Below, piece after piece: positions 9,801 through 12,402 of a stretch of DNA of 64,000 nt. Within the stretch, counting starts at the first letter, position 1. Each line of letters begins with the position of its first letter. Position numbers and translations under genes: made by a program. A model generated the notes under the pieces. That model saw only the letters and a program-made list of their open reading frames with translations. It was not told the origin of the DNA and searched no databases. Origin of the DNA: an uncultured Planctomycetaceae bacterium (GTDB lineage: Bacteria; Planctomycetota; Planctomycetia; Planctomycetales; Planctomycetaceae); contig CAWFGE010000023.1 of assembly GCA_963815195.1 (NCBI GenBank), positions 32,001 to 96,000 of the forward strand, given 5' to 3'.

Positions 9801-10728
9801 GGATGTCCCGCTCGGTCGGCAGAAAGATGAGCATGTCGCCCGCGGGTTTTTCCAGCGCGAGTTCATCGACCGCGGCTTTGAGGCAATCCATCGGATCGGG
9901 TTCGCCTTCGTCTTCCGGGTCTTCGGAGATCAGCGGGCGGTAGCGGGTTTCGACGGGATAGGTCCTGCCCGAAACTTCGAGCACCGGAGCCGGCCCGCTG
10001 TCGCCCGCGAAGTGCTCGCTGAAGCGGGCGGCGTCAATCGTGGCCGAGGTGATGATCAGCCGCAAATCCCGCCGCTTCGGAAGCAGGCGCTTGATGTAGC
10101 CCAACAGAAAATCGATGTTAAGCGACCGCTCGTGGGCCTCGTCGATGATGATCGTGTCGTACTGATTGAGGAAGCGGTCGTTCTGCGACTCGGCGAGCAG
10201 AATGCCGTCGGTCATCAGCTTGATGTAGGTGCTCGGCTTGGTGGCGTCGGTGAAGCGAATCTTGAATCCCACCTGCTGCCCGAGCGGCGACCCGAGTTCC
10301 TCGGCGATGCGGGCGGAGACGGAGCGGGCGGCGATCCGGCGGGGCTGGGTGTGGCCGATCATCCCATCGATGCCCCGGCCGATCTCCAGGCAGATTTTGG
10401 GAAGCTGCGTCGATTTCCCCGACCCCGTCTCCCCGCAAACGACAATCACCTGATGCTCGCGGATCGCGGCGGCGATTTCGTCCTTCTTCGCCGTGATCGG
10501 CAACTCCGGGTCGTACCGGGTCGCGGGGACGTTGCTGGTGCGGTCTTTTCGCTGCTGGACCGATTTTTCCACATCTCTTGCGAGCCGGGAAAGATTGCGG
10601 TCAAATGGCTTCCCGGCTTTTTGAGCGTCTCTGATGTTTCGGAGCCTGCGGCGCAGCCGAAACCGCTCCGCCCCCATCGCCTGGCGGATGTCGCGTTCGA
10701 GTTGGGAGATGGAGGTTGTTTCAGACAT
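6803..10728 (-). CDS. hrpA: ATP-dependent RNA helicase HrpA (one frameshift in a G4 run at ~7741-7744)
   Basis: [33 protein letters not shown] motifs; C-terminal [14 protein letters not shown]...VSEKRL in ORF 6803..7738. Confidence 0.95.
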
Positions 10729-10794
10729 TTGGGGGAGAGGGTGGCACAAAGGGCGAATGGAGATTTGCTGTCTTCTTTTTCTATCAAATCATAC

Positions 10795-10980
10795 TGAAAC
10801 GCCGACGCCTTTGGCCATGCGGGAGCGGCGGATATCGGGGGCCGCGTTCAAGGCTAAGGTGGCGTCGGCGGCGGTCACGGGTGACAAGACGACGGCGTGG
10901 ACGCGACCCAAATCACGGTGTGGAAAAAGCCAACGGAAGGAGTGAGCGCGTGGCCGAAGGCGAGGTTTATGAACGGATGG
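10795..10980 (+). mobile_element. Degenerate IS3-family transposase orfA remnant (second copy 12056..12241)
   Basis: MRERRISGAAFKAKVASAAVTGDKTT then, in shifted frames, VDATQITVWKK and EVYERMG, matching IS3 OrfA HTH consensus; internal deletions and stops. Confidence 0.65.
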
Positions 10981-11136
10981 GTGGCATGCTCATGGCTTTG
11001 CATGAGCATGAGTTTTGACGAAACCCTGGTTTCTCGGCATCGAAGACACGGCCCCTCAATCCAATGACAAAGTCACGTCACGGACTCATCGAACCTGCAG
11101 AAGACATGCTCATGCAAAGCCATGAGCATGCCACCC
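10979..11136. repeat. REP doublet (REPIN-like): two inverted 32-bp palindromic units
   Basis: GGGTGGCATGCTCATGGCTTTGCATGAGCATG at 10979..11010 and its exact reverse complement at 11105..11136; each unit has a 10-bp stem CATGCTCATG/CATGAGCATG. Confidence 0.85.
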
Positions 11137-11141
11137 TGCCG

Positions 11142-11318
11142 CTGAAGCGTGAACAAGGTGGTCATCGCTTCCAAAGGAGAGAGATTCCATTCCCCCGTTT
11201 GGAAAAAGTCCTCGAGCGCCTGTTGATGATCAAACCCACTTTGCTCCAGATAGGCATACCCATCAAATCGCAGAGCACAATGCGTGAGAATGTCGTGTTC
11301 GTCAAATGGTCGGTTCAA
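11142..11318 (-). pseudogene. 5' fragment of a hypothetical gene truncated at the repeat junction
   Basis: TTG start overlaps the TGA of the upstream gene; protein-like LNRPFDEHDILTHCALRFDGYAYLEQ... runs into REP-derived sequence at 11141. Confidence 0.5.
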
Positions 11319-11752
11319 TGGACAACTCCCAGATGGTGTTCCGCGCAACCATGACAGACATGCTTCCCCTCCATCTCGTGGGCATGTTCAATGGGTGTCG
11401 GTCGCTGACAAAAGTGACAAGGCCGAATTTCCGCTTGCCGCGTCTGCCGGGCTTGATCGAGCAATTTTTGGAGTCGTTCATCCGAAAGCCGGGCGTGCGA
11501 AGCCCGTTTCCAAAATCGGCTGATCCCCACCGGACCGTGAGTTCCGTGCGTCCATTCCACGCTGGGAATACGAAACTCGATCGACTCGGGCGTGACCAAC
11601 ACAACCACACCCGGTTCGGTTTCCTGAATAATCTCAATGCAATCCCGCGTGCGAGTCACTTCGGGGGAGACAAGGAACGAAATCACACGAAGTGCGACAT
11701 CGGCAAAGGCCCGTTCATCGTTGTTGAGTTCGGAATAGAGATCAGTATCCAT
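11315..11752 (-). CDS. Hypothetical protein with C-terminal CxxC...CxxC zinc-ribbon-like motif
   Basis: 145 aa from ATG 11752; PCHFC...HVCHGCAEHHLGVVH. Confidence 0.7.
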   Translation of the reverse strand: MDTDLYSELNNDERAFADVALRVISFLVSPEVTRTRDCIEIIQETEPGVVVLVTPESIEFRIPSVEWTHGTHGPVGISRFWKRASHARLSDERLQKLLDQARQTRQAEIRPCHFCQRPTPIEHAHEMEGKHVCHGCAEHHLGVVH

Positions 11753-11786
11753 GAGTGAGCGCCCTTCATTATTCAAATCGCCCGGA

Positions 11787-11947
11787 TCATTTGCCGGGAT
11801 TGGGTTGGTCTTCGTTCGTAATAAGGCCCTTGGCCAACTCCGCAAAGCGGGACAGTCGCTTTTGCTCTTGCTCAATGGACTCCAAGGAGAGAAACGTTTT
11901 GTCCGTTTCGAGACTGCTCACGGCATATCCGACATTGTCCTGCACTT
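11787..11947 (-). pseudogene. 3' fragment of an unknown gene truncated at the repeat junction
   Basis: Open frame VQDNVGYAVSSLETDKTFLSLESIEQEQKRLSRFAELAKGLITNEDQPNPGK* running from the junction to TGA 11787. Confidence 0.45.
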
Positions 11948-12402
11948 GATGTCGCGTTCGAGTTGGGAGATGGAGGTTGTTTCAGACATTTGGGGGAGAG
12001 GGTGGCACAAAGGGCGAATGGAGATTTGCTGTCTTCTTTTTCTATCAAATCATACTGAAACGCCGACGCCTTTGGCCATGCGGGAGCGGCGGATATCGGG
12101 GGCCGCGTTCAAGGCTAAGGTGGCGTCGGCGGCGGTCACGGGTGACAAGACGACGGCGTGGACGCGACCCAAATCACGGTGTGGAAAAAGCCAACGGAAG
12201 GAGTGAGCGCGTGGCCGAAGGCGAGGTTTATGAACGGATGGGTGGCATGCTCATGGCTTTGCATGAGCATGAGTTTTGACGAAACCCTGGTTTCTCGGCA
12301 TCGAAGACACGGCCCCTCAATCCAATGACAAAGTCACGTCACGGACTCATCGAACCTGCAGAAGACATGCTCATGCAAAGCCATGAGCATGCCACCCTGC
12401 CG
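11948..12402. repeat. 455-bp direct repeat, copy 2 (contains truncated hrpA start [14 protein letters not shown] and REP doublet 12240..12397)
   Basis: Identical by eye to 10687..11141. Confidence 0.95.

Follow-up and report, generated by a model that had tools for sequence, protein, structure and literature searches.

Insertion of genes with a long target duplication was reportedly dealt with in an earlier reference, Nobusato 2000. In the available passages of Furuta, Abe and Kobayashi (2010; PMC2853133), such insertions consist of genes lying between long direct repeats of the target, with no integrase or transposase inside. These repeats often span a start or stop codon, which leaves the host gene intact, and partial genes can be found as cargo.

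For REPIN–RAYT systems, the accessible text of PMC3333891 states that TnpAREP cuts at distant dinucleotides (CT), and it was predicted there that neighbouring genes could be sequestered. The cut sites published for RAYT enzymes are CT and CA, with CC, GA and GT reported for mutated guides, cleavage being guide-dependent (PMC8266576, parts available). The accessible literature further describes tandem REPINs with their flanks (PMC3116915), captured 3' ends of rayt genes (PMC2817692), the GT[AG]G foot by which REPs are defined (PMC2817692, PMC6006769) and REPs in Planctomycetes (PMC3733652). A few cases of capture, codA–cynR among them, appear in these sources as available, and capture of gene fragments as well as genes was predicted. 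Target duplications of 70–455 bp around accessory genes are absent from the same passages; S7 of PMC3333891 and Additional file 4 of PMC2817692 may show similar cases. In the literature as available, both ingredients, insertions with long target duplication and predicted gene capture by RAYT, are published separately. No paper was found in these texts that ties a long target duplication to REP or RAYT or that reports CG; supplementary figures might do so.

The window analysed here is a stretch of 64,000 nucleotides on contig C23 of an uncultured Planctomycetaceae genome (8.87 Mb in 25 contigs, 94.6% complete, 2.8% contamination). In front of its hrpA gene, 806 bp are enclosed by two copies of a 455-bp sequence. 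On the minus strand, the PALP gene comes first and is followed by a pair of REP-type hairpins and copy 2; next are the gene tail, the 145-aa gene and the cut gene head, and then copy 1 and hrpA. The individual features are:

6803..10728, minus strand: hrpA, encoding a DEAH helicase with DUF3418; start codon ATG at 10728; a single net frameshift near 7742
10687..11141, no strand: repeat copy 1 (hrpA side), with hrpA codons 1–14, the upstream region, the IS3 orfA remnant and the REP-A doublet
10788..10817, minus strand: weak sigma-70-like match upstream of hrpA, consensus match only (9/12); copy at 12049–12078
10817..10936, plus strand: degenerate fragment of a putative IS3-family orfA, within the repeat; second copy at 12078–12197
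10974..11141, no strand: REP-A doublet, REPIN-like, 168 bp, hairpin fold z = -8.3, CG at both outer ends
11142..11318, minus strand: cut gene head of about 60 codons, 76% to P0151, ending at the CG of a conserved Arg codon, which is joined to the REP end
11315..11752, minus strand: complete 145-aa gene, alpha/beta domain plus C-terminal four-Cys zinc ribbon, pLDDT 94.8
11787..11947, minus strand: probable gene tail of 53 codons, no ATG start, presumed to be a gene, GC3 0.65
11948..12402, no strand: repeat copy 2, 100% identical to copy 1, left neighbour TT, not CG
12235..12402, no strand: second copy of the REP-A doublet, within copy 2
12420..12509, no strand: two more REP-type hairpins just outside copy 2, one GTAG-type (12488–12509, plus strand), one degenerate (about 12420–12445, minus strand)
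12530..13630, minus strand: PALP-family PLP enzyme gene, upstream neighbour beyond copy 2

As described in the first-pass annotation, the two copies are identical (455 of 455 positions, no mismatch), and the spacer holds a gene tail, one complete Zn-ribbon gene and a truncated gene head, all on the minus strand. Identity between the copies ends at both boundaries, and no second blastn match to the 806-bp spacer was obtained anywhere in the assembly at E<=0.01. Besides the REP doublet and the orfA remnant, each copy includes the region upstream of hrpA together with precisely the first 14 codons of the gene. The left end, previously placed inside codon 14, lies exactly between codons 14 and 15. 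The other end had been located 5 bp beyond a REP unit; these 5 bp form the conserved outer end of the REP (CG and three bases), so the repeat stops on the element's own end. Copy 1 is preceded by a CG (10685–10686) and its other end is a CG as well; the chance of a CG just before the left end in hrpA is about 0.12. When noticed post hoc, the hrpA cut site (10685–10690) and the variant left REP end (10974–10979) displayed the same six bases from CG on.

It had also been claimed that hrpA stays intact. Its start and upstream region are indeed kept, but the gene carries a net single-base frameshift near 7742, which is located in a C run, as judged relative to two congeners, and is probably a read error. 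Congener G001 has its own frameshifts near the same hrpA region. In copy 2, the 14-codon hrpA start runs out of frame into the cargo tail and reaches a stop after 9 more codons; thus no fusion protein arises. The scan for sigma-70-like sites gave 2 matches, which are the two repeat copies, against a shuffle mean of 0.7. The orfA fragment is 80% identical over 76 bp to a multicopy IS, has neither IS ends nor orfB, gave no Pfam or NCBIfam match and was putatively assigned to the IS3 family from an integrase-like ORF of the related IS. Low-GC accessory genes were observed on either side of the hrpA region, a 219-aa ORF at 6049–6708 and a TPR protein at 13624–14475.

With the insertions described in the available part of PMC2853133, the locus shares direct repeats longer than 30 bp (455 bp) around an insert shorter than 20 kb (806 bp). 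In both, the insert is free of genes for an integrase or a transposase; the one trace of such an element here is the dead IS3 fragment within the repeat. The absence of both enzymes, noted early on, was confirmed, as the insert ORFs gave no such Pfam or NCBIfam match. The insertions in that text differ by a cargo of restriction-modification genes, with double-strand breakage suggested as common cause, whereas one end is here fixed at the CG of a REP. No restriction or modification family match was found in the cargo, which is therefore not of that type. An inverted REP doublet, a GTGG foot, a nearby RAYT, tandem REPIN arrays with flanking DNA and apparent cleavage at a distant dinucleotide are shared with the REPIN–RAYT systems as far as described in the accessible passages. 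In contrast to the E. coli and Marinomonas enzymes, for which these passages give CT or CA, the junctions here point to CG. Peel-and-paste transposition of IS200/IS605 would be similar in its HUH single-strand chemistry and in the capture of neighbouring DNA via alternative ends (PMC3333891, parts available). It produces no target repeat, whereas a 455-bp repeat is present here and no transposase gene travels with the unit. One-ended capture by IS91/ISCR likewise involves HUH chemistry with capture of neighbouring DNA, and would be marked by a Y2 transposase and an oriIS at the end of the captured DNA.

The cargo is unlikely to matter much in itself, two of its three genes being broken. The 135-aa homologue P0151 continues about 73 residues past the point where the cut head ends, and the 3' part of the cut gene was not found in the assembly. 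In P0006 and P0043 the domain of the cut head is fused to the zinc-ribbon domain, which indicates that the cut gene and the 145-aa gene are a true functional unit. For the 145-aa protein, 244 relatives were detected at E<=0.001; Cys 112, 133 and 136 were invariant and Cys 115 nearly so in 80 aligned relatives. The protein belongs to a genuine family. It has no Pfam or NCBIfam match, and its structure gave no Foldseek match at E<=0.001. The best VIA match, to a chaperone/YbjN-like arrangement, had Z 8.0, rmsd 4.5 and 101 aligned residues, which is too weak to assign a function. The tail had no homologue among 248 candidates or among 151 fetched proteins, matched only its own genome in a set of 301, and gave no usable match in the Atlas search.

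A source operon of the 806 bp had been proposed as an object of search. No donor was found, and matches to the 145-aa protein were restricted to 4 of 61 genomes (own included) and to none of three congeners, next to one weak metagenome locus. Neither tail nor head had a match in the loci bearing 145-aa relatives. A relative of the cargo gene, 90–95% identical, was present without the flanks in sequencing run X6. The earlier description of the insert as foreign holds for its GC content (53% versus 60%), but the neighbour genes outside the repeats are equally atypical: GC3 is 0.53–0.65 in the cargo against a median of 0.75 in long ORFs of the host, and the two outside neighbours have 0.54 and 0.47. 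An outside rather than resident origin of the 806 bp is considered likely. An integron cassette, consisting of one or more whole genes with an attC site, seems a poor fit for the insert, in which a gene is truncated where it meets the REP end.

The REP-A units of the doublet are 32-nt palindromes at 10979–11010 (plus strand) and 11105–11136 (minus strand), separated by a 94-nt spacer. GTGG stands immediately before their 10-bp stem, in agreement with the GT[AG]G foot. The two units are inverted relative to each other, and the genome has 48 copies of the unit. Conservation at the outer end covers a CG and the three bases next to it, with 39 of 49 ends beginning with CG. The left end of the doublet is a rare variant (2/49 ends, both in the two repeat copies). 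The first-pass proposal to look for a RAYT was fruitful: contig C11 bears an intact 198-aa ORF with 99.5 bits to NF047646 (cut-off 80), about 250 bp from a REP-A doublet and with REPs on its upstream side only. The same protein scored 26 with the IS200 model, below the cut-off of 55. Two further RAYT matches are below the NF047646 cut-off and broken, and REP-A is located within 2.5 kb of three of the six Y1_Tnp matches. A CG is common to the junctions of this REP group; this is a footprint in the genome rather than a measured cleavage, and it differs from the published sites CT and CA. REP-A is also present in other uncultured Planctomycetaceae MAGs, and six loci from these displayed no long flank duplication.

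Several observations were made beside this survey. A RAYT-like match at G000:C13:936724-937155, absent from the Pfam search, is 54% identical to the C11 protein and close to a REP-A at 938997. The whole genome has at least 15 REP-like motif families with 46–368 matches each. Roughly 6 nt outside doublets of the GTAG type there is a conserved AG, complementary to the CT of the classic site; these doublets too occur as near-identical pairs, 1–3 kb apart.

The footprint was quantified over the genome. At each of 164 CG-type REP ends, a seed 20–50 nt outside the CG was used to search for other copies, and the position at which identity ends was recorded; seeds with more than five other copies were skipped. 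For 15 ends (12 loci), a second copy of the flank breaks at the CG or at most 2 nt after it, in 11 cases exactly. The controls gave 4/815 for nearby CGs, 4/3000 for random CGs and 3/895 for ends of other REP families (Fisher p 3e-7, counted by loci). Of 12 pairs on the same strand, 11 have the unbroken copy on the downstream side. Since no second copy of its outer flanks exists, the hrpA locus does not count among the 15; it is tied to the pattern via its CG ends. In the three congeners, none of 24 CG-type REP ends (20 loci) had a flank copy breaking at CG, where about 2 were expected, which speaks against a general pattern. The CG-type family with the most copies is almost confined to this genome (72 copies versus 2, 0 and 0). 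A genome-wide ORF test for empty sites gave no signal over 39 doublets: at least 60 codons were open on both sides in 7, 10 and 10 of them when 0, 1 or 2 bases were kept.

Other long duplications ending on a REP, for which a search had been proposed, were found. A DUF1501 gene on C6 has its terminal 229 bp in two copies, with a 288-aa accessory gene and a REP-A doublet between them, and on C4 the 3' end of ribA (191 bp) is duplicated around 3.7 kb; both duplications join at the CG of a REP. The C6 copies diverge at the stop codon. In congener G001, a single copy of the C6 sequence is joined to the native flank, which represents the empty site, while the new flank and gene resemble DNA of G002 and G003. 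By this comparison of genomes, the C6 cargo is inserted, not resident. The 5' end of an ABC gene (264 bp) is duplicated on C15 around about 2 kb including a RAYT piece, and this gene start looks similar to the DUF1501 and ribA cases. The C15 interval (G000:C15:624155-626635) holds the RAYT piece, an Imm22-family gene and several REPs between the two ABC gene starts, as if the REPtron itself had come in and produced the 264-bp duplication. The REP doublets on C8 and C13 are each bracketed by a duplicated flank, of 278 bp and 74 bp respectively, of which G001 has one copy. The copies differ by substitutions at six of the seven sister loci; read errors rarely give substitutions and are thus unlikely to have made them.

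At hrpA, no empty site was found in the three congeners (G001–G003). Each of them has one hrpA start with different upstream neighbours, in G001 a BtpA gene without REP, and synteny is too broken to yield the ancestral state. Two further loci were noted in the course of these comparisons. At G000:C21:253393-254227, two REP ends enclose 835 bp of a multicopy IS, which is cut at CG on both sides. The REP doublet at G000:C18:124982-125133 has flanks mapping to two different G001 contigs, as have the REPs of C4 and C6, and REP ends may thus mark rearrangement breakpoints.

The feature at hrpA is very probably real. The explanation that we favour, with roughly even confidence, is a real and recent insertion with a 455-bp target duplication, made by a RAYT (HUH/Y1) acting in trans at the REP doublet. 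Both ends of the hrpA-side copy are at CG, and one of these is the conserved end of the REP; the truncated cargo gene likewise contributes a CG to its join, and both broken ends of the cargo would be accounted for by one event. These CG sites are directly visible, whereas the role of the enzyme and the outside origin of the cargo are inferred. The RAYT would nick single-stranded DNA at the REP-end CG and, 287 nt away, at another CG that lies in hrpA. Part of an accessory operon, originating from a different cell or locus, would be joined at its CG to the REP end, and its other end, trimmed or untrimmed and not at CG, would resolve the second nick. Replication of the staggered product would then duplicate everything between the nicks. 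Since neither the start nor the upstream region of hrpA is lost, the event was presumably tolerated. With two identical copies present, RecA would be able to remove the 1261 bp again by looping out. The TT on the cargo side of the left junction counts against this explanation, the join not being a clean CG exchange; it would be explained by 3' trimming as allowed in the accessible text of PMC3333891. A broader claim is made tentatively and seems possible rather than probable: that a RAYT with CG specificity is a gene-capture enzyme in this planctomycete lineage, with target duplications of 70–455 bp that spare the host gene. The enzyme would then join REP ends to CGs, both at the ends of host genes and within accessory DNA that comes in, with cargo in the kilobase range (at C15 the RAYT gene too).

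The alternative that survives best is a local hop without capture. In this scenario, which uses the same two cuts, the 806 bp would be resident within an accessory patch, with the PALP gene on one side and the REP doublet on the other. The RAYT would have copied the doublet with 287 nt of flank, cutting at the hrpA CG and bypassing the variant left REP end, and the copy would have gone in 806 bp away, at a CG next to two further REPs; here too, the cargo side of the left join has no CG. The hrpA-side copy corresponds precisely to such a CG-to-CG excision unit, near-identical REP doublets 0.3–5 kb apart are common in the genome, and the GC3 of the outside neighbours is as low as that of the cargo. 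Removal of copy 2 with one CG kept restores the reading frame of the tail, with 16 open codons upstream, which favours the local hop and speaks against capture. This frame test is a weak one, as one frame in three would pass and about half of the 16 codons translate a degenerate REP, and no tail homologue was found with which the join could be checked. A local hop also requires two earlier truncation events, and the cargo was inserted at C6, the sole cargo-bearing sister locus with an outgroup. Altogether it is considered unlikely, while keeping an appreciable share of the probability.

The first-pass annotation had offered two alternatives, Campbell-type integration of a 1261-bp circle or a REP-triggered duplication-capture. 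The latter is supported by the CG ends, the RAYT beside a member of the REP family and the recurring footprint. RecA-mediated integration of a preformed circle, or a one-sided homologous capture from a near-identical relative, would need no RAYT cut at insertion and gives the identical topology; moreover, one side of the C6 locus looks homologous, its new flank matching other congeners. However, the CG at the REP end and the sister loci are left unexplained. The two joins of the circle would still need a maker, one of them being a REP-end CG join of the enriched kind, no circle or circle joint was seen in four shallow contig sets, and the insert lacks an integrase. Integration of this type is regarded as improbable.

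An assembly artefact, either a strain chimera or a chimeric long read in this metagenome-assembled genome, is given a similarly small chance. The perfect identity of the copies would fit with it, as would an assembly with indel errors and some contamination. Reads across the junctions had been called for: seven sequencing runs were available (best share 0.33), and contigs of four of them were compared with 11142–14500. None bridged a junction, uncovered parts proving nothing. Run X1 contains cargo (11280–11520), repeat and flanks without differences and at like depth (3–4), X1 possibly being from the same sample and thus not independent. One of its contigs, of 412 nt, covers 11948–12257 but then passes into sequence unlike the locus and does not reach the cargo. 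With a depth of 3.87 it is not at twice the level of the unique parts (2.9–3.93); at a depth of about 3, holes and depth ratios carry no information. The ends also fall on CG sites, as in the older sister duplications with diverged copies, which argues against an artefact.

An IS3-family transposon or unspecific repair as maker of the duplication, with the REP at its end by accident, is very improbable: although the repeat contains an orfA remnant and the genome has an intact multicopy relative of it, the remnant has no IS ends and is set back 130–200 bp from the repeat's edge. It is the REP end that forms the boundary, and only REP ends of this kind show the excess across the genome.

According to the available part of a 2022 preprint, no study links REPIN function to RAYT beyond in vitro cleavage, and an in vivo system was called for by Ton-Hoang et al. 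(PMC3333891, accessible text). The hrpA locus is modest when taken singly; the value lies in a genome-wide footprint, precise to the base, which makes RAYT activity in cells testable. At 12 loci of this genome the exact base of the join is visible, an intact candidate enzyme is present, and for three loci a congener has the single-copy state. A specific prediction follows, namely a CG cut 3 nt outside the REP core. If capture is true, REP doublets would be entry points for accessory genes beside core genes. CG-specific capture, if true, would provide a host-level function for domesticated RAYTs and a mechanism for insertions with long target duplication.

Three minor observations concern other parts of the genome and window. 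Another direct repeat (G000:C23:243040-245239; 700 bp, 95%) likewise has a spacer of 806 bp, probably by coincidence, and bears none of the searched REP motifs. On G000:C6 (L035:1422-1904), a pair of 73-aa and 82-aa genes beside REP-A, without Pfam match, is 88% identical to G002 DNA; it resembles toxin–antitoxin pairs of the HicAB type. The gene at 17418–18234, from its motifs presumably an FKBP-type isomerase, is split over two frames like hrpA at 7742, likely by single-base read errors.
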